Source: an uncultured Caulobacteraceae bacterium (GTDB lineage Bacteria; Pseudomonadota; Alphaproteobacteria; Caulobacterales; Aquidulcibacteraceae). Taken from it: a stretch of 64,000 nt of DNA. A program made the translations under genes and the position numbers. Every line of letters starts with the position of its first letter. The first letter of the stretch is position 1. The notes below the pieces were generated by a model that was not told the DNA's origin, made no database searches, and was given only the letters and a program-made list of their open reading frames with translations. Location of the stretch: NCBI GenBank assembly GCA_964443435.1, contig CAYUCW010000001.1, positions 11,474-75,473 on the forward strand, read 5' to 3'. Below, one piece after another: positions 744 through 11,954 of this stretch.

Positions 744-1493
744 ATGAGTTTTCCATTAAATTTACCTTTATTCGGGCAAAATATTCCAAGTCATAGTATT
801 CTTGAAACATTGTCTTATTTTATTGGGTATCGTTTCTATTTATTCTTAAAGCATAAATGGAAAGATGATTATGGCGACGAAGCACGCCTTAATATTTTTG
901 TTGGCGCAATATTAGGTGCGGCTATAGGGTCTAAACTTTTAGGTTTTTTAGAGCATAAAATTTTATGGAGTTTAGCACTAGAAAATATAATTCATATAAT
1001 GGCTGCAAAAACAATTCTTGGCGGATTAATCGGTGGCACAATTGGGGTTGAAATCGTAAAATTCTTTTGCAAGATCAAAAGATCTAGTGGTGATCTATAT
1101 GTTTTTCCAATAATATTGGGAATTATAATTGGTCGCATCGGCTGTTTCTTGGATGGCGTTAATGATGGAACCTGGGGAAATAAAACAAGCTTTATTATGG
1201 GAATAGATGGTGGTGATGGGGTATTGCGCCATCCAACCCCTCTTTATGAAATTATCTTTTTAAGTTTGCTATTTATAAGTTTGTGGAAAATTAAGCCAAA
1301 AATTAAAACTGAAGGTGATTTGTATAAAATCTTTCTTGGTTCTTATTGTTTTTGGCGATTTTCAATTGAGTTTATAAAGCCTATCGAAACTCATACTATT
1401 TTGAATCTTTCTTTTATCCAGATGGCATCAATACTTATGATTGTATATTATTTTTTTGTGTTTATCATGCGAAGAAAAAGAAGGATAATTTAA
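744..1493 (+). CDS. Prolipoprotein diacylglyceryl transferase (Lgt)-family membrane protein, divergent paralog
   Basis: GRIGCFLDG, RHPTPLYE and YCFWRFSIEFIK correspond to Lgt GRLGNFING, RHPSQLYE and RxxxEFxR; multiple TM segments. ATG 744 preferred over 711. Confidence 0.85.
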   Translation: MSFPLNLPLFGQNIPSHSILETLSYFIGYRFYLFLKHKWKDDYGDEARLNIFVGAILGAAIGSKLLGFLEHKILWSLALENIIHIMAAKTILGGLIGGTIGVEIVKFFCKIKRSSGDLYVFPIILGIIIGRIGCFLDGVNDGTWGNKTSFIMGIDGGDGVLRHPTPLYEIIFLSLLFISLWKIKPKIKTEGDLYKIFLGSYCFWRFSIEFIKPIETHTILNLSFIQMASILMIVYYFFVFIMRRKRRII

Positions 1494-2878
1494 TGCCAGT
1501 TCGTGATTATGTTTTTTATGAATTAACGAATAGCATTTGTCCTGATTGCTTCAAAAAATTAGAAGCAAAAATAATTATACAAGACAATAAAGTATATTTG
1601 GTGAAGCAATGCCCAGATCATGGGAAGTTTAAAGTCCTCATTTCTGATGATGCCGAATATTATAAAAAGACCAGAGATTTCCTTAAGCCTGGTGATATCC
1701 CTATTAAATTTAGTAAAAAAGTTGAACTTGGCTGCCCTTATGATTGTGGGCTCTGCACAGATCATGAACAACATTCATGTGTTTCAATCATAGAACTTAC
1801 CGATAGATGCAATCTTACCTGTCCTGTTTGCTATGCATCTTCTTCACCTTCGAGTGGAAGCCATAGGAAGCTTGAAGAAGTCAAAGCAATGATTGATATT
1901 ATTGTCAAAGCCGAAGGCGAGCCAGACGTAGTGCAATTGTCAGGAGGAGAACCAACGCTTCATCCAGATTTTTTTGAAATTCTCGATTATTGCAAAACAA
2001 AGCCTATTCGCCATTTAATGATTAATACAAATGGCTATAGAATTGCCAATGAGCCAGATTTTGTAAAAAGACTTAGCATGTATATGCCATCTTTGGAAAT
2101 TTATCTTCAATTTGATAGTTTTGAAAAAGAAACTCTAATTAAATTACGTGGGCAAGATGTTACAATTTGGCGTGAAAATGCGATTAAACATCTTAATCAA
2201 TATAATATTTCTACGACTTTAGTTGTTACTTTACAAAAAGGCCTAAATGACAGTGAAATTGGTAAAATAACTGATTTTGCAAAAGATCAAAAATGCATAA
2301 GAGGGGTAACATTTCAACCAACCCAATACGCAGGTAGAATTGAAAATTTTGATCCTGAACTTGATAGGCTTACATTAAGCGCGGTACGAAATGAAATTTT
2401 AAAACAATCTGAAATTTTTAATGCCGAAGATTTAATTCCTGTTCCATGCCACCCTGATGCAATTATGATGGGCTATGCATTGAAGCTTGGCGATGAAATA
2501 TTGCCACTAACAAGATATTTTAGTCCTGAAGACCTTTTAAGTGCCACTCGAAACACAATAAACTTTGAAACTCTTCCTGAAATTCAATCAAAGCTTTTTG
2601 AATTATTTTCGACCTCTAATTCCCCACAAGATTGCACTGAGAAAATTGCAGAAATTATGTGCTGTTTGCCAAAAATCGAAATAGGGCAGTTAAATTATTC
2701 AAATTTGTTTAGAATTATTATTATGAAATTCTATGATGCTTATGATTTTGATGTGCGCGGTGTTAAAAAATCTTGCGTTCATATTGTGCATAAAGACGGA
2801 CGCATAATTCCTTTTGATACTATGAATTTATTTTATAGAGATCCTAAAGATGAAGCAAAACTTATGGGGGCAAGGTAA
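1493..2878 (+). CDS. Radical SAM protein of the Tes/GDGT-MAS (MJ0619)-like family
   Basis: N-terminal CPDC...CPDHG, GCPYDCGLCTDH, radical SAM CNLTCPVC, SGGEPT, NTNG, YLQFD, C-terminal KKSCVH...DGRIIPF. Confidence 0.85.
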   Translation: MPVRDYVFYELTNSICPDCFKKLEAKIIIQDNKVYLVKQCPDHGKFKVLISDDAEYYKKTRDFLKPGDIPIKFSKKVELGCPYDCGLCTDHEQHSCVSIIELTDRCNLTCPVCYASSSPSSGSHRKLEEVKAMIDIIVKAEGEPDVVQLSGGEPTLHPDFFEILDYCKTKPIRHLMINTNGYRIANEPDFVKRLSMYMPSLEIYLQFDSFEKETLIKLRGQDVTIWRENAIKHLNQYNISTTLVVTLQKGLNDSEIGKITDFAKDQKCIRGVTFQPTQYAGRIENFDPELDRLTLSAVRNEILKQSEIFNAEDLIPVPCHPDAIMMGYALKLGDEILPLTRYFSPEDLLSATRNTINFETLPEIQSKLFELFSTSNSPQDCTEKIAEIMCCLPKIEIGQLNYSNLFRIIIMKFYDAYDFDVRGVKKSCVHIVHKDGRIIPFDTMNLFYRDPKDEAKLMGAR

Positions 2879-3147
2879 TGGATGAGCCAATTAAAAAGTT
2901 TAATTATTTACAATTGAGCGGTATCTATCTTATTATTATAGTTATTGCTAATTTTATTGGAGGTTTAGGGTTAGCCGCTTTTATTCAATTACCTGTAATT
3001 TTAATAACTTTTTTTGTCGCGATCGTGTTAAGTTTTAGTAAACCATTTGATAAACAATACTGGATTTTATTTGGTATAGCTATATTAATAAGTGGGCCAA
3101 GTTGCTTTTTATTAGGAATGTTTAATTTGGCATATAGGTATTATTAA
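2878..3147 (+). CDS. Small membrane protein (about 3 TM), paralog of the next gene
   Basis: Hydrophobic 89 aa; TAATG overlap with the rSAM stop; WILFGIAILISGPSCF motif. Confidence 0.75.
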   Translation: MDEPIKKFNYLQLSGIYLIIIVIANFIGGLGLAAFIQLPVILITFFVAIVLSFSKPFDKQYWILFGIAILISGPSCFLLGMFNLAYRYY

Positions 3148-3470
3148 TGGGTACAATAACACCAAAAAAACTATATATTGGCTTCAGCGCTATATATGTA
3201 ATTATTATACTTATTTTTCATTTATACTTCCGTGATGACCATTTAGGTTTACTAGTAGTATTTGCAGCTCAATTCACTTTTATAGTTCTTGTATTTGCAA
3301 TTGCAATTATTGCGAGCTTAACTTTATTTCTAATAAAACCTGAATTAATAAAACATTTCTGGATATTTTTTGGTCTTACTGTACTTTTAAGCGGTGCTCA
3401 GTGTTTTTATATTTTTGCAATAGAAGCAATTATAACAAATAATGAGTTGTATATTTTGAACGGAAAATAA
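3147..3470 (+). CDS. Small membrane protein (about 3 TM), paralog of the previous gene
   Basis: Hydrophobic 107 aa; TAATG overlap; WIFFGLTVLLSGAQCF motif. Confidence 0.75.
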   Translation: MGTITPKKLYIGFSAIYVIIILIFHLYFRDDHLGLLVVFAAQFTFIVLVFAIAIIASLTLFLIKPELIKHFWIFFGLTVLLSGAQCFYIFAIEAIITNNELYILNGK

Positions 3471-3486: not shown

Positions 3487-4065
3487 CTAAATAACCGTAA
3501 TCAACCAAAAGCCAAAAACAATAAAGAAAGCCACTGCGCCAGTAACCCAATAAAGCTGTTTTTCAATAAATGGCTCTATGCTAGGGCCAAATTTCTGTGC
3601 AAGCCATGCAACACCAAAAAATCTTGCACCTCTTGTAATTGCACATGACATTACAAAAACAAAGAAATTGAATTTCGTCATTCCTGAAAGAATGGTCACA
3701 AGCTTAAAAGGAATTGGCGTAAGGCCTTTAATAAGAATTACTAAAGCACCATATTTTTGGAATTGCTCATTGAAATGAACCATTTTTTCGGCATAGCCAT
3801 AGAATTCCATTAATGGCTTTCCTACTGTATCCATCAAGAATAAACCAATAAAATAGCCAAAAATACCACCTAACACTGAGGCAATTGTTGCAATTAAAGC
3901 GGTTTTCCACCAATTTTTTGGATTTGTTGCCGCCATTGGTAAAATCATAACGTCGGGCGGAATTGGGAAGAAAGAAGCTTCGGCAAAAGAAACGATGGCA
4001 AGTGCTGGATTAGCTTTTTCAGATGCAGCAAGAGTTCTAAGTTTTAAATATAAGTTTTTAAGCAT
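3487..4065 (-). CDS. YqaA/DedA (VTT domain) membrane protein
   Basis: SFAEASFFPIPPDVM, ATIASVLGGIFGY, TPIPFKL. Start taken at ATG 4065. Confidence 0.9.
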   Translation of the reverse strand: MLKNLYLKLRTLAASEKANPALAIVSFAEASFFPIPPDVMILPMAATNPKNWWKTALIATIASVLGGIFGYFIGLFLMDTVGKPLMEFYGYAEKMVHFNEQFQKYGALVILIKGLTPIPFKLVTILSGMTKFNFFVFVMSCAITRGARFFGVAWLAQKFGPSIEPFIEKQLYWVTGAVAFFIVFGFWLITVI

Positions 4066-4197
4066 GAACCCAAATAACCATTTTATGATAAATAATAAAT
4101 TAAGAAATGCATGAAACCTCAATTATTTTGCAAAATAATATGATTTTGCTTGTAAATAATCAATTTTCGTGTCTAATTTAACTATGGAGGGGCTATT

Positions 4198-4611
4198 ATG
4201 AAATTATTTGGTGTAAAATTAGTACCGATTTTAGTTGCGGCGCTTGCGGCATATATCGTTGGAATGGTTATTTATGGGTTGTTATTTTCGGCGCAATGGA
4301 TGGCCTGGAGTGGTAAAACCGCGGAGTCTTTCAAAGGGCTTGAATGGCGAATGGCGCTTAGTCCGATTATGCCACTTGTACTATCTTTTGGCATAGCTAA
4401 AGCAATTAATGCCCGAAATATAGTAAATTGGATATCTGGTCTAAAACTAGGCGTTTTTATCGGCCTATTTTTAACAATTTCGACAAGACTTTATACTTTT
4501 GTCTATGGTACAGAGCCAATAGAATTATACCTTCTTGATAGTGTTCATTTTATATTGATTAGTGCTGTATGTGGTGCAATTCTTGCTAAAATGAAAGTCG
4601 GTGAAGTTTAA
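4198..4611 (+). CDS. DUF1761-like membrane protein
   Basis: 4 TM; N-terminal AALAAYIVGMVIYGLLFSAQWM pattern. Confidence 0.65.
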   Translation: MKLFGVKLVPILVAALAAYIVGMVIYGLLFSAQWMAWSGKTAESFKGLEWRMALSPIMPLVLSFGIAKAINARNIVNWISGLKLGVFIGLFLTISTRLYTFVYGTEPIELYLLDSVHFILISAVCGAILAKMKVGEV

Positions 4612-4686
4612 ACTGCTATTTCAAGAAAACTAACTTGGAATTTTCGGATAATAATGTAAGCCAATTATTATAAATTGGTTTTTAAA

Positions 4687-5472
4687 ATGCGTATTTTACT
4701 TGTAAATGATGATGGAATTAATGCTGAAGGCTTTGCGGTTCTCGAGAAAATTGCAAATGCACTAAGTGATGATGTTTGGGCGGTTGCGCCCGATAAAGAA
4801 AGATCGGCGGTTTCACGCGCAATAACTTTGCATGATCCCATTAAAGTAAAGCAATTAGGACCAAAAAGATTTGCATGCTCTGGTACCCCAACTGATTGCG
4901 TTATTATTGGTGTACTTGACATTCTAAAAGATAAAAAGCCAGATTTAATTTTATCGGGGGTTAATCGTGGGCAAAACTTGGCGGAAGATGTCACGGTTTC
5001 TGGAACGGTTGCGGGCGCAGTGCAAGGTATGCAAATGGGCATTAAATCAATCGCGCTTTCGCAAACTATTGATTTTTCTGACTATGGCCCCGCTTGTTTT
5101 GAAGTTGCAGAAAAATATAGCGTCGAGATTATAAAAAAGCTTTTAAATGCTTTTTGGCCGCCAACAATTGTTATGAATGTTAATTTCCCAATGAAAATTT
5201 GTATGAAAAACATTGATGAAGCAATCATAGAAGCAACTTCACAAGGTGCACGCGAAGAAGATGTTAATCATGTTCACAAGCGTGAAGATTTGCGCGGAAG
5301 TGAATATTATTGGCTTGGCTATAATCAACAAGAACATTTACCGCCATTAGGTACGGATTTACGCGCGGTTATGGATGGTAATATTTCTATAACTCCATTG
5401 CATATTGATTTAACTTCACGAAGCGTATTAAATGAGCTTGCAAAAGATTTTGTAACAAAATTGGAAAATTAA
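4687..5472 (+). CDS. surE: 5'/3'-nucleotidase SurE
   Basis: MRILLVNDDGINAEG, GTPTDCV, SGVNRGQN, SGTVAGA. Confidence 0.97.
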   Translation: MRILLVNDDGINAEGFAVLEKIANALSDDVWAVAPDKERSAVSRAITLHDPIKVKQLGPKRFACSGTPTDCVIIGVLDILKDKKPDLILSGVNRGQNLAEDVTVSGTVAGAVQGMQMGIKSIALSQTIDFSDYGPACFEVAEKYSVEIIKKLLNAFWPPTIVMNVNFPMKICMKNIDEAIIEATSQGAREEDVNHVHKREDLRGSEYYWLGYNQQEHLPPLGTDLRAVMDGNISITPLHIDLTSRSVLNELAKDFVTKLEN

Positions 5473-6107
5473 TGGATTCAACGGCTTCGCGCGCAAAATT
5501 AATTCTGGCATTAAGGCAACAGGGCATAAGAGACCCAAGAGTGCTTACAGTGCTAGAAACAGTGCCGCGTGAACTATTTGTTGCCCCCGAATTTGCACCG
5601 CGCGCTTGGGATAATTCGGCGCTTCCTATAAGTTTTGGACAAACAATTTCACAGCCCTTTGTGGTTGGTGCTATGACTGCGGCACTTGAACTTTCAGGTA
5701 ATGAATTTGTCTTAGAAATTGGAACTGGTTCAGGTTATCAAACCGCAATTCTTTCAAAGCTTGCGCGGCGTGTTTTCACGATTGAGCGCTATCGTCCTTT
5801 AATGAAAGAAGCGCAAAAACGCTTTGAAGCTTTGGGGCTAACTAATATTGTTGCAAAATGTGATGATGGTGCAAATGGCTGGGTAGAGCAGGGGAAGTTT
5901 GACGCAATAATCGCAACTTGTGCTTTTGCCAATCGCCCAGATAGTTTGCTTGCGCAATTAAAAATTGGTGGCCGATTTATTGTACCAGTTGGTCAAGGAA
6001 GCGTGCAAGAGCTTTTAAGATATAGACTACGCGAAGATGGCGTATTCGAAGAAGAAGCTTTGATGGATGTGCGTTTTGTGCCGCAACTTCCTGGGATATC
6101 TGGATAA
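5472..6107 (+). CDS. pcm: Protein-L-isoaspartate O-methyltransferase
   Basis: GQTISQP, VLEIGTGSGYQTAILS; follows surE with a TAATG overlap. Confidence 0.97.
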   Translation: MDSTASRAKLILALRQQGIRDPRVLTVLETVPRELFVAPEFAPRAWDNSALPISFGQTISQPFVVGAMTAALELSGNEFVLEIGTGSGYQTAILSKLARRVFTIERYRPLMKEAQKRFEALGLTNIVAKCDDGANGWVEQGKFDAIIATCAFANRPDSLLAQLKIGGRFIVPVGQGSVQELLRYRLREDGVFEEEALMDVRFVPQLPGISG

Positions 6108-6147
6108 TATTAAGCACCTATAAACCATGTTTTGCCATAATTAGATT

Positions 6148-7305
6148 ATGCGAAATAAAAGAATTATTTTTGGCTTATTTGTTTTCACCCAATTATTATG
6201 TGTGAATGGCTTTGCGCAAACAAAGTTAAATGAAGTTGCCCCGGCTGGGACTGCGAAATTTGATCCGAAAAACCCGCCAACTGAAACTATTGTTAAAAAC
6301 CGTGAAACACTTTTCGATATTGCAGAAAGAACACGCTCACCGCTTGAGGGGATAATCGAAGAAAATAATCTTTCGCCGCCCTATAGCTTGGTAGCAGGGC
6401 AGAAAATCAAGCTTCCTCCTCTAAAGGTTCATATTGTTCAAAAAGGTGAAAAGCTTGAAACCATTGCCGCAAGATATAGTATAAATCTTCGTTCGCTTGC
6501 CGTTTTTAATAATCTTAGTCAACCTTATAATATAAAAAGAGGCCAAAAAATTATAATGCCTGCAATGGTGCAGGATAGCTTAACTGGTAAAGAAGCTATT
6601 GACCTCATAAGTTTGATTACTGGGGAAATTAATAGCGGTAAAAAAGTATCTGGCAATAATGGCGGTGCGATTTCAATCCGTAGAGATAATACAATACCGC
6701 AATTACCAAAGGGGTTTAGCGGTATAGATTCCGTGCCTATCGCGCAGCCGGTTAATCCGGTTCCAAAACCGAAATCTAATGTGCCCAATACTGCCATTAA
6801 TTCACCAAAGCCTAATATTGCAACCAAGCCAAAAGCAATAAGTACCGAAGCTAATACTAATCAGATAAATCCACCAAAAACTAATGTAAATCCAACGCCA
6901 AATAATGCGATTATTAATGTTGTGAATGGTCGTTTTTCTTGGCCTATTAAGGGAAATATCCTTGAAACTTTTGGCGAAAAGCGCAATTTTGTTAAAAATG
7001 ACGGAATTGATATTGCTGCGCCATTAAATACGCCATTCAAAGCTACTGCCGATGGGGAAGTTGCCTTTGTTTCAGATAAGATTACGGGATATGGCTGGCT
7101 TGTTTTGATAAAGCACAAGGATGGATTTCTAAGCACTTACGCTTATGCCAATAAAATTATTGTTAAAGAAGGTGATATAGTCAAAAAAGGTCAAGAAATT
7201 GGCTTAATTGGGCAAACTGGCCGTGCCACAAGCCCAAGGCTTCACTTTCAAATTCGTAATGGACTTAGTCCAATTGATCCTACGCCACATTTAAATAGAG
7301 GCTAA
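6148..7305 (+). CDS. LysM + M23 peptidase-domain protein (NlpD/DipM-like)
   Basis: Signal peptide, two LysM repeats, Pro/Asn-rich linker, C-terminal WPIKG..NDGIDI..LHFQIR; surE-pcm-nlpD synteny. Confidence 0.9.
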   Translation: MRNKRIIFGLFVFTQLLCVNGFAQTKLNEVAPAGTAKFDPKNPPTETIVKNRETLFDIAERTRSPLEGIIEENNLSPPYSLVAGQKIKLPPLKVHIVQKGEKLETIAARYSINLRSLAVFNNLSQPYNIKRGQKIIMPAMVQDSLTGKEAIDLISLITGEINSGKKVSGNNGGAISIRRDNTIPQLPKGFSGIDSVPIAQPVNPVPKPKSNVPNTAINSPKPNIATKPKAISTEANTNQINPPKTNVNPTPNNAIINVVNGRFSWPIKGNILETFGEKRNFVKNDGIDIAAPLNTPFKATADGEVAFVSDKITGYGWLVLIKHKDGFLSTYAYANKIIVKEGDIVKKGQEIGLIGQTGRATSPRLHFQIRNGLSPIDPTPHLNRG

Positions 7306-10713: not shown

Positions 10714-11954
10714 TTTTCACCTTTAAAAATATTTTTTCCAAACTTATTATTAAGCTTATCAATTGCTTTTTCTAGTTTGGCATATTTTTGATTATTTGTA
10801 TTAATTAAATCATTTTCATCTGCGCCAATATCTTCTTTTACATTATTAAGTCCAATTCCAATAAGCCTGAATGGGGCTTCTTGCATAATATCTGCTAATA
10901 AAGGTTTTGCCGCTTCGTATATTATACGTCCAGTTTGCGTAGAAGTTACAAGGCTTGTTTGCCTTGTTATATTTTTAAATCTAATAGTTTTTGCTTTTAA
11001 GTGAATTGTATTAGCCGCAAGATTCTTACTTCTGGCTTCTGCGGCAATTTTCATACAAAGCACTCGTAGGATTTTTAGCAATTCTTCTTGGCTACTTATA
11101 TTATTACTAAAAGTAGTTTCTGTGGATATGGATTTTCGGGCATGGGTTTCACCAATTTTTCTATTATCAATTCCCCATGAATATTCATAAAACCTTTGAC
11201 CCGTATTACCAAAGCATTGAATTAAATAATTTTTATCGGCATTCGCAATATCACCAATTTTTTTAAAGCCTAGCTTTTCAAAGTTTTTTACACTTGCACC
11301 GCCTAGGCCATGAATAAAGCTTATTGGTCTTGGCCAGAGAACTTCTTTAATATCATCACTAGTTAAAATATAAAAACCGCGCGGTTTGTCCATATCACTA
11401 GCAGTTTTGGCAAGAAACTTATTATTAGATAGCCCAATTGAAACTGTGATCCCGATTTCTTGTTCAATAGTTTTGGCAATTTTGGCAAGGCTTTGAGCGG
11501 CAATCATTTTATGAAGCTTTTGCGTACCTGAAAGATCTAAATAAGCTTCATCAATTGAAACATTGTCAATAATCGGGGTGTATCTTTGAAATACTTCTTG
11601 AATTCTTTTGGCTTCTTTGCGGTATAAAGCGCCATTAGGTTTTATAATCACTGCCTCTGGGCATAATTTTTGCGCAACAAACATTGGCATTGCCGACTTA
11701 ACGCCTTTTGTTCTTGCAATATAACAAGCAGTAGCTACGACCCCACGCGTACCACCGCCAATAATAACTGGCTTATCCATAAGTTTGGGATCTTCACGTT
11801 TATGAATTGAAGCGAAAAAAGCGTCGCAATCTATATGGGCAATATTAAGGTCTTTTAAGTTTTTATAGTTTATAAGCCTGCGACTATTGCAAGTGGGACA
11901 CTTAGAAAGTGGCTCAAAAAACAAATTAAAGCAGTCACGACACAAAAAATCCAC
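10710..11954 (-). CDS. dinB: DNA polymerase IV
   Basis: [19 protein letters not shown]-terminal Zn ribbon typical of alphaproteobacterial DinB. Confidence 0.95.

Follow-up and report, generated by a model that had tools for sequence, protein, structure and literature searches.

What brings together a divergent relative of the prolipoprotein diacylglyceryl transferase Lgt, a GDGT-MAS/Tes-type radical S-adenosylmethionine (SAM) enzyme and a pair of very small cysteine-bearing membrane proteins? The question is raised by a stretch of 64,000 nucleotides (nt) (the window, i.e., the whole stretch of DNA that was analysed; G+C content ~36%), which is taken from the forward strand (positions 11,474 to 75,473) of contig CAYUCW010000001.1, assembly GCA_964443435.1, of an uncultured Caulobacteraceae bacterium. 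At positions 744-3470 of the window, four genes encode, in this order, LgtL, the radical SAM enzyme (here termed rSAM), and the small membrane proteins smA and smB, which are referred to as miniproteins. Comparison of gene neighbourhoods in bacteria of about ten phyla shows that the genes of this module are linked, and it is very probable that LgtL, rSAM, and the miniproteins work together. The reaction that they would carry out is answered more tentatively below.

Architecture and recurrence of the module

The features of the unit are the following.

744-1493, + strand: LgtL gene, encoding a divergent Lgt-family membrane protein with seven transmembrane (TM) helices, 249 amino acids (Pfam LGT, orthologue profile, AlphaFold2 (AF2)/Foldseek)
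1131-1145, + strand: GRIGC motif of LgtL, counterpart of G142-R-L-G-N146 of Lgt (alignments of 25 and 37 orthologues, 5AZB)
1491-1495, + strand: TAATG stop/start overlap between LgtL and rSAM (sequence)
1493-2878, + strand: gene of the GDGT-MAS/Tes-type radical SAM enzyme rSAM, 461 amino acids (Pfam PF23545 and PF04055, phmmer, AF2/Foldseek)
1808-1831, + strand: CX3CX2C radical SAM cluster motif with C106, C110, and C113 (sequence, alignment, GDGT-MAS match)
2876-2880, + strand: TAATG stop/start overlap between rSAM and smA (sequence)
2878-3147, + strand: smA, encoding a small three-helix membrane protein, 89 amino acids, with Cys76 at nt 3103-3105 (jackhmmer family)
3145-3149, + strand: TAATG stop/start overlap between smA and smB (sequence)
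3147-3470, + strand: smB, a paralogue of smA, 107 amino acids, with Cys86 at nt 3402-3404 (pairwise comparison and jackhmmer)

The four open reading frames (ORFs), as read from the sequence, comprise 249, 461, 89, and 107 codons, and in each of the three TAATG overlaps one base is common to the stop codon and the following ATG. The start of LgtL is set at the ATG at position 744 instead of the TTG at 711 given by the ORF lister, because the N-termini of the orthologues (MxFP...) align there. In many orthologous loci the LgtL ORF extends a few bases beyond the start of the rSAM gene. A first-pass annotation, made from the letters of the DNA alone, had described four same-strand genes joined by TAATG overlaps at 1493, 2878, and 3147, of which the first would be Lgt-like, the second Tes/GDGT-MAS-like, and the last two a paralogous, Cys-bearing pair. 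The arrangement is confirmed in the sequence, and the assignments agree with the family matches, folds, and alignments given in the next section, the Lgt-like gene being classed there as a distinct paralogue.

Linkage was counted in 142 non-redundant loci, each with an rSAM orthologue of at least 50% identity and flanks of 4-5 kb; the denominators 130, 135, and 137 used here are subsets of these loci. In 118 of 135 loci the LgtL gene directly adjoins rSAM, and in 128 of them (~95%) it lies within the flank. Of 137 loci, 128 (~93%) contain a small Cys protein, 119 of them by jackhmmer alone, and all three parts occur together in 116/130. Because Lgt genes are so sparse, with roughly one per several megabases of genome, and because the arrangement recurs across phyla, the linkage of LgtL and rSAM goes beyond chance. 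The first-pass annotation had suggested a neighbourhood search for Lgt-like and Tes-like pairs and for small transmembrane proteins with an SGxxC motif travelling with them; the pairing is found as predicted, and Cys-bearing small proteins do accompany it, while SGxxC is only a local form and not a motif of the family.

More than 8,000 relatives of the rSAM protein are found in the database; the best 120, drawn from several phyla, share 61-84% identity with it. Two genome scans with rSAM give 67 and 80 loci, the second covering at least 581 species-level genomes, and the clade as a whole is 51-84% identical across phyla. The nearest relatives of LgtL and rSAM are found in metagenome-assembled genomes (MAGs) labelled Hyphomonadaceae, Pseudomonadota, or Rickettsiales, in line with a plausible alphaproteobacterial origin. 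According to record titles, the module occurs in Alpha- and Gammaproteobacteria, a 'Deltaproteobacteria' MAG, Bacteroidota of many families, Bacillota (Neobacillus, Paenibacillus, Brevibacillus, Cohnella, and others), Cyanobacteriota (Fischerella, Cylindrospermum), Sericytochromatia, Obscuribacterales, Planctomycetota, Omnitrophota, and a Holophagaceae (Acidobacteriota) MAG. Cultivated hosts include Asticcacaulis excentricus, Pedobacter, Chitinophaga, Paenibacillus and Neobacillus species, and Fischerella. A search started from LgtL, which has 882 relatives, leads to the same association: both of two Flavobacteriia loci carry rSAM and two small 'LGICG' Cys proteins. When 1.84 billion cluster representatives (50% identity) are searched with a profile, 340 LgtL-type clusters (E <= 1e-30) are contained among 8,506 Lgt-family clusters; the distribution of the LgtL family is sporadic and not universal.

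The content of the module is kept when its order is changed, as in an Omnitrophota MAG, where two small genes lie upstream of LgtL; at another locus (L050), LgtL is divergently oriented. The module of Chondrinema litorale is carried by a 162-kb plasmid, and the RefSeq labels of its genes are 'prolipoprotein diacylglyceryl transferase family protein', 'radical SAM protein', and 'hypothetical protein'. Two loci carry LgtL and rSAM in one reading frame. On a high-GC metagenome contig (L155, 803-3004), the 733-amino-acid protein P0284 consists of an LGT domain, a 45-residue Ala/Pro linker, the Zn ribbon, and the Radical_SAM domain, and in Neobacillus pocheonensis KCTC 13943 (L065, 4266-6413) a single ORF of 716 codons represents a possible fusion. 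The fusions imply that the C-terminus of LgtL and the N-terminus of rSAM are on one side of the membrane, which would be the cytoplasmic one. The gene following P0284 overlaps its stop codon and runs off the 3-kb contig. In another N. pocheonensis strain (L030), LgtL and rSAM are separate and in different frames; the single ORF of strain KCTC 13943 may be a genuine fusion or may result from an assembly error of one base.

A fourth conserved gene is not found by all-against-all clustering of the flanking ORFs, which gives genus-level synteny only, and the genes that lie between LgtL and rSAM in Hymenobacter, Saprospiraceae, and a flavobacterial MAG are lineage-specific. At a Hymenobacter locus (L096, 1722-2981), the LgtL ORF has ~170 extra C-terminal residues and a tetratricopeptide repeat-like gene precedes rSAM; the extra length may be an addition peculiar to this lineage, or two genes may have been read as a single one.

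The components and their surroundings

Judged by profiles and model, LgtL is an Lgt-fold protein, yet a distinct paralogue and no standard Lgt. It matches the Pfam family LGT (PF01790) over residues 22-241 with 83.4 bits (gathering score 24.9) and stays below the equivalog cutoffs for Lgt (TIGR00544, 46.4 versus 118.9; NF000778, 47.6 versus 334); a Neobacillus orthologue reaches 53.6 versus 118.9 on TIGR00544. A profile of 25 orthologues matches the E. coli Lgt structure 5AZB with E = 7e-12. The AF2 model of LgtL has a predicted local distance difference test score (pLDDT) of 90.4 and a predicted TM-score (pTM) of 0.87, and in a Foldseek search with this model, 5AZB is the sole significant match in the PDB (E = 9.9e-6, TMq 0.63). 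From positive-inside counting, the N-terminus is predicted to be outside and the Arg/Lys-rich C-terminus inside, as in Lgt. All 37 aligned orthologues keep R131 and R205, and E209 is conserved to at least 90%; these residues correspond to R143, R239, and E243 of 5AZB, and R143 and R239 of E. coli Lgt are essential for transfer (PMC4728403). The RHPxxLYE motif is likewise kept, according to the orthologue alignments and 5AZB. The periplasmic loop following the signature motif is reduced to 19 positions in LgtL versus ~40 residues in the E. coli enzyme, as aligned with 5AZB.

In public records, some LgtL orthologues are labelled 'prolipoprotein diacylglyceryl transferase', a name that is probably wrong for these genes. 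A canonical lgt beside LgtL is found neither in the 64-kb window nor in the 1.4 Mb of module loci scanned. In a plasmid collection, canonical lgt occurs on 501 records, 242 of them from Enterococcus, with some of the 'plasmid' records being chromosomes of 4-5 Mb.

The enzyme rSAM contains the Pfam domains Zn_ribbon_HMPTM (PF23545) and Radical_SAM (PF04055) and is made up of a Zn/Fe ribbon of the rubredoxin type, an auxiliary cluster site near the N-terminus, the radical SAM core, and a C-terminal domain. Its similarity to GDGT-MAS extends over nearly the full length, with E = 5.9e-67 over residues 11-454 in the phmmer comparison with 7TOL, and the two enzymes are 29% identical. The AF2 model, whose confidence is low in the cluster loops and in residues 344-397, matches 7TOM in Foldseek with E = 2.6e-35 and TMq 0.77 over 490 aligned columns; other radical SAM structures are matched in their generic cores at a TM-score of ~0.38. 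All three metal-binding motifs are invariant in the clade. The rubredoxin motif C16X2C19X20C40X2H43, the N-terminal site C81X3C85X2C88 (with H91/H94), and the cluster motif C106X3C110X2C113 all have a spacing identical to that published for GDGT-MAS. Kept as well are the residues aligned with Gln268 and Arg275, which contact SAM in GDGT-MAS, and with Met439 (M411 in rSAM).

On the NCBIfam model for Tes (NF045702), rSAM scores 283.3 versus a cutoff of 450, and orthologues from Bacillota and Bacteroidota score 291-295. Peptide maturases such as SkfB and AlbA are matched in the radical SAM core only, at 22-57 bits versus cutoffs of 265-850, and neither a SPASM/twitch domain nor a recognition element of the ribosomally synthesized and post-translationally modified peptide (RiPP) type is found in rSAM with Pfam and NCBIfam. 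The ORF is free of in-frame TGA and would therefore encode no selenocysteine. By these comparisons of sequence and model, rSAM is a true GDGT-MAS/Tes homologue of a separate clade. GDGT-MAS purified from E. coli carries bacterial diacyl lipids in its pockets (PMC9433317).

The miniproteins smA and smB are 37% identical over 78 amino acids (pairwise E = 1e-9), belong to no Pfam or NCBIfam family, and contain one Cys each near the C-terminus, at residue 76 of 89 and residue 86 of 107, respectively, with Cys76 of smA being close to the end of the last helix. A jackhmmer search from smA through 8,295 ORFs with 40 or more codons, taken from both strands of 146 sources and without a Cys filter, retrieves 161 ORFs from 121 loci; every one of them lies on the rSAM strand and beside an orthologous rSAM gene. 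In mapped loci, 152 of them start within 1.7 kb downstream of rSAM, 3 lie upstream, and 1 is located farther downstream. The search from smB gives the same kind of matches, while in a word-index search smB finds no close relative, only itself. Each locus holds one to five miniprotein copies, which are arranged in tandem and diverge fast, and 159 of the 161 family members have Cys in the column of Cys76. One of the two exceptions, from a Hyphomonadaceae MAG (L004, 6212-6514), is one of four tandem paralogues and carries Thr at this position.

What is conserved in the family is a [small][small/aliphatic]-Cys element ending a hydrophobic helix. In a profile anchored on the Cys, compiled from a sequence set that was partly picked by a hydrophobicity and Lys/Arg filter, Lys or Arg is found in 43-57% at positions -23, -21, and -20 and in 20-36% at the other two positions from -23 to -19, and does not occur between -14 and -2. 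Where the lipobox consensus reads [LVI][ASTVI][GAS]-Cys, the family shows Phe, Asn, Val, or Leu at position -3, a small residue (Pro and Gly included) in 89% at -2, and Ala in 52% at -1, with Leu, Val, or Ile in others. Behind the Cys, Phe occupies position +1 in 52% and Gly or Ala position +2 in 72%, and the 2-24 residues that follow (median 10) are mostly hydrophobic helix. The Cys context thus looks like a copy of the n-region/h-region/lipobox layout of Lgt substrates that has been shifted to the C-terminal helix of a miniprotein. The placement of a lipoprotein precursor, with a Cys within the first ~40 residues behind an N-terminal signal peptide, is not seen in smA and smB. At an alphaproteobacterial MAG locus that is partly masked with N (L057, 6388-7219), tandemly duplicated small proteins downstream of rSAM carry the hydrophobic helix and the sequence 'LLLSGGC' at the N-terminus, not at the C-terminus.

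The unit is bordered upstream by a seryl-tRNA-synthetase-like ORF with its stop at 701 and downstream by the convergent gene of a DedA/VTT-domain membrane protein (3487-4122, - strand), which resembles the undecaprenyl-phosphate transporter UptA weakly, with a score below threshold. Beyond it, the gene of a DUF1761 membrane protein (4198-4611, + strand) and, at 4675-7305, an apparently ordinary surE - pcm - LysM/M23 peptidase (nlpD-like) gene row are located, the latter judged from translations alone. In the clustering of flanking ORFs, the DedA/VTT and DUF1761 genes do not recur beside the module in other genomes. A terminator-like hairpin (713-730) lies 3' of the seryl-tRNA-synthetase-like ORF and overlaps the best promoter-like hexamer pair (711-738), which is 6 nt upstream of the LgtL ATG; in the scan for promoters and terminators, match counts are not above those of shuffled sequence. 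Rfam yields no riboswitch or other RNA at the operon, its only match being a tRNA-Ser elsewhere in the window. A role of the unit as a defence system was considered and rejected, since PADLOC gives generic viperin-core matches only.

The proposed reaction and its alternatives

In the reading favoured here, which is put forward tentatively and at somewhat less than even confidence, LgtL would lipidate the miniprotein Cys, and rSAM would then couple the tails of the resulting anchor by radical chemistry. The four genes would constitute one dedicated membrane machine. A lipidation of the two small proteins at their shared Cys and/or a cross-linking of acyl tails had been suggested as a possibility in the first-pass annotation, and this view is supported to the extent that sequence analysis allows. 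LgtL would move a diacylglyceryl group from a glycerophospholipid, by analogy phosphatidylglycerol, to the near-invariant Cys of smA and smB. This acceptor would be placed as a lipobox Cys is, i.e., behind a Lys/Arg-rich cytoplasmic stretch, an uncharged helix of ~16 residues, and two small residues, albeit at the C-terminal end of an integral miniprotein and not in an N-terminal signal peptide. rSAM, translationally coupled to LgtL and in some lineages fused to it, would dock on the cytoplasmic face of LgtL and apply 5'-deoxyadenosyl-radical chemistry, together with its auxiliary clusters, to the hydrocarbon tails of the anchor. Tail ends may be joined within the anchor, to a second lipid, or to a second lipidated miniprotein, and the result would be a conjugate of lipid and protein that is covalently cross-linked and possibly spans the membrane. 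The miniproteins are regarded as the substrates because of the Cys present in 159/161 members, its lipobox-like context, and the tandem, fast-diverging copies, which resemble those of precursor peptides. A more specific form of the proposal, in which rSAM would form C-C bonds between the tail ends of a protein-bound lipid and a second lipid so that aerobic bacteria would possess protein-anchored, membrane-spanning (bolaform) lipids, is regarded as doubtful; it would amount to a post-translational modification system of a kind not known before.

Several observations weigh against the lipidation-and-coupling reading. Its geometry would be awkward, since the active site of LgtL and the miniprotein Cys are predicted to face the outer leaflet, and rSAM would be cytoplasmic, as SAM-dependent Fe-S enzymes must be. 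In the HGGL motif of Lgt, His103 is changed to Leu or Val (T-I-L/V-G-G-L) in 25 of 25 aligned LgtL orthologues; in E. coli Lgt this residue is essential and is the proposed binder of the lipobox peptide, and the variants H103A/N/Q/R/Y all fail to complement (PMC4728403). Within the LgtL signature G-R-I-G-C-F-L-x-G, an invariant Cys134 (nt 1143-1145) takes the place of Asn146 of the Lgt signature G142-RLGNFINGELW-G154. Because His103 is lost and Asn146 is replaced, LgtL may bind its acceptor differently from Lgt, or Cys alkylation may be absent altogether.

Further points of this kind concern rSAM. Its clade has invariant C-terminal cysteines of its own (C319, C390, C391, and C428), a set unlike that of GDGT-MAS, and a Cys neighbouring Met439 of GDGT-MAS aligns with Ile; in the structural report, the labile Met439 is the ligand named for the C-terminal cluster of GDGT-MAS (PMC9433317). 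The best NCBIfam match of rSAM is TrsS (NF045646), covered at full length with 324.4 versus a cutoff of 490; rSAM scores higher on TrsS than on Tes and passes neither, and orthologues from Bacillota and Bacteroidota likewise stay below both cutoffs. A 37%-identical homologue on the Mycolicibacterium vanbaalenii plasmid NZ_CP126902.1 has an ArsM-like methyltransferase gene adjacent and no LGT gene. By this comparison of sequences, which shows the LGT linkage to be clade-specific, the chemistry of the superfamily would be diverse and would extend beyond lipid tails, because that homologue adjoins the ArsM-like methyltransferase. Finally, ~5% of the loci are without LgtL in the flank and ~7% are without a recognisable small protein. 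The M. vanbaalenii locus, the methyltransferase of which is of the DVU_1556 family (ArsM-like), also contains a second radical SAM gene, CcdA, and a protein disulfide oxidoreductase.

Among the competing explanations, the one that survives best, although it is unlikely, is the modification of a free membrane lipid by LgtL and rSAM, with LgtL presenting, for example, phosphatidylglycerol or another glycerolipid for tail coupling or modification by rSAM; the miniproteins would be anchors, assembly factors, or regulators, and their Cys would be a metal or redox ligand. The loss of the His from the proposed peptide-binding motif of LgtL and the loci without a small protein nearby would fit such a function, as would GDGT-MAS itself, which works on free lipids and binds bacterial ones (PMC9433317). 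However, stoichiometric subunits are seldom encoded by one to five tandem, fast-diverging paralogues that keep only a helix and one Cys, nor would the resemblance of the Cys context to the n-region, h-region, and lipobox of Lgt substrates be expected. Bacterial Tes homologues are discussed as lipid couplers (PMC8941075, PMC11868695), but according to Sahonero-Canavesi et al. diabolic-acid producers outside the Acidobacteria are without Tes homologues, and of the iso-diabolic-acid-producing acidobacterial genomes only 3/14 possess them (PMC13159169).

A RiPP-like lipopeptide route is improbable. In this route, rSAM would modify the peptide at or near the Cys, introducing, for example, a thioether or C-C linkage, LgtL would lipidate it, and a cut of the signal-peptidase-II type in front of the Cys would release a C-terminal lipopeptide that is 3-25 residues long. 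Small genes that lie in tandem beside a radical SAM gene and are hypervariable except for one fixed residue are indeed the classic RiPP layout, and the portion behind the Cys is as short as such a product would be; these residues, however, are mostly hydrophobic helix with no recognisable core peptide. Similarly, the weak match of the rSAM core to SkfB and AlbA is set against the full GDGT-MAS architecture of the enzyme and its lack of SPASM and RiPP-recognition domains. A conserved protease or exporter nearby is not found by flanking-ORF clustering, in which nothing extends beyond genus level.

Still less probable, and in fact very unlikely, is carbon-heteroatom chemistry (C-S, C-Se, or C-As) on the Cys of a small protein or on Cys134 of LgtL, with LgtL acting as a membrane platform; such chemistry may be that of TrsS, the nearest curated relative. 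It would account for the full-length TrsS match, for the invariant extra Cys of LgtL besides the conserved one of the small proteins, and for the ArsM-like DVU_1556-family partner of a related clade; moreover, the GDGT-MAS reaction itself passes via a bond between substrate carbon and cluster sulfur. On the other side, the TrsS cutoff is not reached, no methyltransferase or selenium gene is found in the 142 loci, and LgtL keeps the lipid-binding arginines.

That the first gene is simply the housekeeping Lgt of this genome and a chance neighbour of unrelated genes is hardly credible: the Pfam LGT match, the name given to several orthologues in public records, and the absence of any other Lgt from the 64-kb window speak for it, but they are opposed by a score of 46 bits versus the 118.9-bit equivalog cutoff, the replacement of His103 and Asn146, a linkage to rSAM in 95% of 135 loci across phyla that sometimes takes the form of a fusion, the sporadic occurrence of the family (340 clusters versus 8,506 Lgt-family clusters), and its plasmid-borne location in Chondrinema (162 kb). 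The refuting case named in the first-pass annotation, that this gene is the genome's only housekeeping Lgt, is contradicted indirectly by the sub-threshold score, the loss of His103, and the sporadic, plasmid-borne distribution.

Relation to known systems and implications

The closest counterparts of the module are found by component. With Lgt (E. coli 5AZB/5AZC; TIGR00544, PF01790), LgtL shares the 7-TM fold, the predicted topology, the arginines, and RHPxxLYE, and the miniprotein Cys, the presumed acceptor, is preceded by a charged stretch, a hydrophobic helix, and small residues like the Cys of a lipobox. Unlike Lgt, LgtL is below the family cutoffs, altered at His103 and Asn146, shorter in its periplasmic loop and overall (~250 versus 291 amino acids), sporadic in occurrence, and nearly always coupled and sometimes fused to rSAM, and as putative substrates it has dedicated miniproteins whose Cys is close to the C-terminus, not N-terminal signal peptides. 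rSAM has the four-domain architecture and the metal-motif spacing of GDGT-MAS/Tes (M. jannaschii MJ0619, 7TOL/7TOM; NF045702), from which it differs by its 29% identity, its sub-cutoff score, and its other C-terminal cysteines. Moreover, the hosts of the module are mostly aerobic, ester-lipid bacteria and not archaea, and a linkage to LgtL and Cys miniproteins was not found reported for Tes.

The name TrsS was reportedly given by Haft and Tolstoy in 2025 to a radical SAM (seleno)protein. TrsS (NF045646) and rSAM belong to the same Zn-ribbon and radical SAM superfamily and match over the full length; unlike TrsS, rSAM is sub-cutoff and is without selenocysteine, and the sub-threshold homologue that was inspected adjoins an ArsM-like methyltransferase, not an Lgt-like gene. 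Mss is said to have been described by Sahonero-Canavesi in 2022 as the bacterial membrane-spanning lipid synthase of Thermotoga and Thermoanaerobacter; it is a radical SAM enzyme. The reaction proposed here for rSAM would resemble that of Mss in being a tail-to-tail coupling of fatty-acyl tails in bacteria, but Mss works on bulk membrane lipid. It is only remotely related to Tes, is so far known from anaerobes, and has no reported Lgt-like or miniprotein partner (PMC13159169).

A further parallel is offered by the MYXO-CTERM/myxosortase tags, in which an invariant Cys lies beside a C-terminal TM helix and for which 'Lgt-like' lipidation is proposed (PMC11980579); the miniprotein Cys has the same kind of position, and lipidation by an Lgt-like enzyme is proposed for it as well. 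The tags belong to large secreted proteins, which a CPBP protease cleaves, and run from the Cys through the helix to an Arg cluster in the cytoplasm, whereas in the module the order is charged stretch, helix, and Cys on miniproteins, with rSAM linked and no protease linked. Sactipeptide clusters (SkfB, AlbA) are similar in their tandem, hypervariable small genes with one fixed Cys beside a radical SAM gene. They differ in that the 'precursors' of the module are integral membrane proteins and that rSAM is without SPASM and RiPP-recognition domains, matching in its generic core only.

A 2026 review of lipid-modifying radical SAM enzymes treats Tes, Mss, Gms, GrsA/B, Gmm, Cds, HpnH/J/P/R, Jaw5, and the ladderane enzymes and mentions neither Lgt nor lipoproteins. 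In the literature on Lgt, radical SAM enzymes, Tes, and the lipobox, no published account was found of a module of an Lgt-like protein, a Tes-like rSAM, and miniproteins, in accordance with the first-pass statement that no characterised system with this gene combination is known. The parts belong to known superfamilies; for the three-part system, no characterised counterpart was found in the literature, and each reading that survives the evidence would be something not yet known.

For the bacterial Tes homologues, 456 of which were reported by Zeng et al., a role in the synthesis of branched glycerol dialkyl glycerol tetraethers (brGDGT) has been proposed (PMC8941075); a metagenomic study of 2025 regards the activity of bacterial Tes as unconfirmed, and the homologues are counted as brGDGT synthases (PMC8941075, PMC11868695). 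The LgtL-linked clade offers a concrete alternative to this role, and plain Tes homology should be used with caution as a lipid biomarker gene. If the more specific form of the proposal, with C-C bonds to a second lipid, is true, a large share of the bacterial 'Tes homologues' counted as brGDGT markers would do something else. The module occurs in cultivated, named species, and therefore experiments are feasible. Lgt is an antibiotic target and an anchor of genome annotation. If the miniprotein Cys is lipidated and the tails of its anchor are radical-coupled, the module would represent a new class of protein lipidation.

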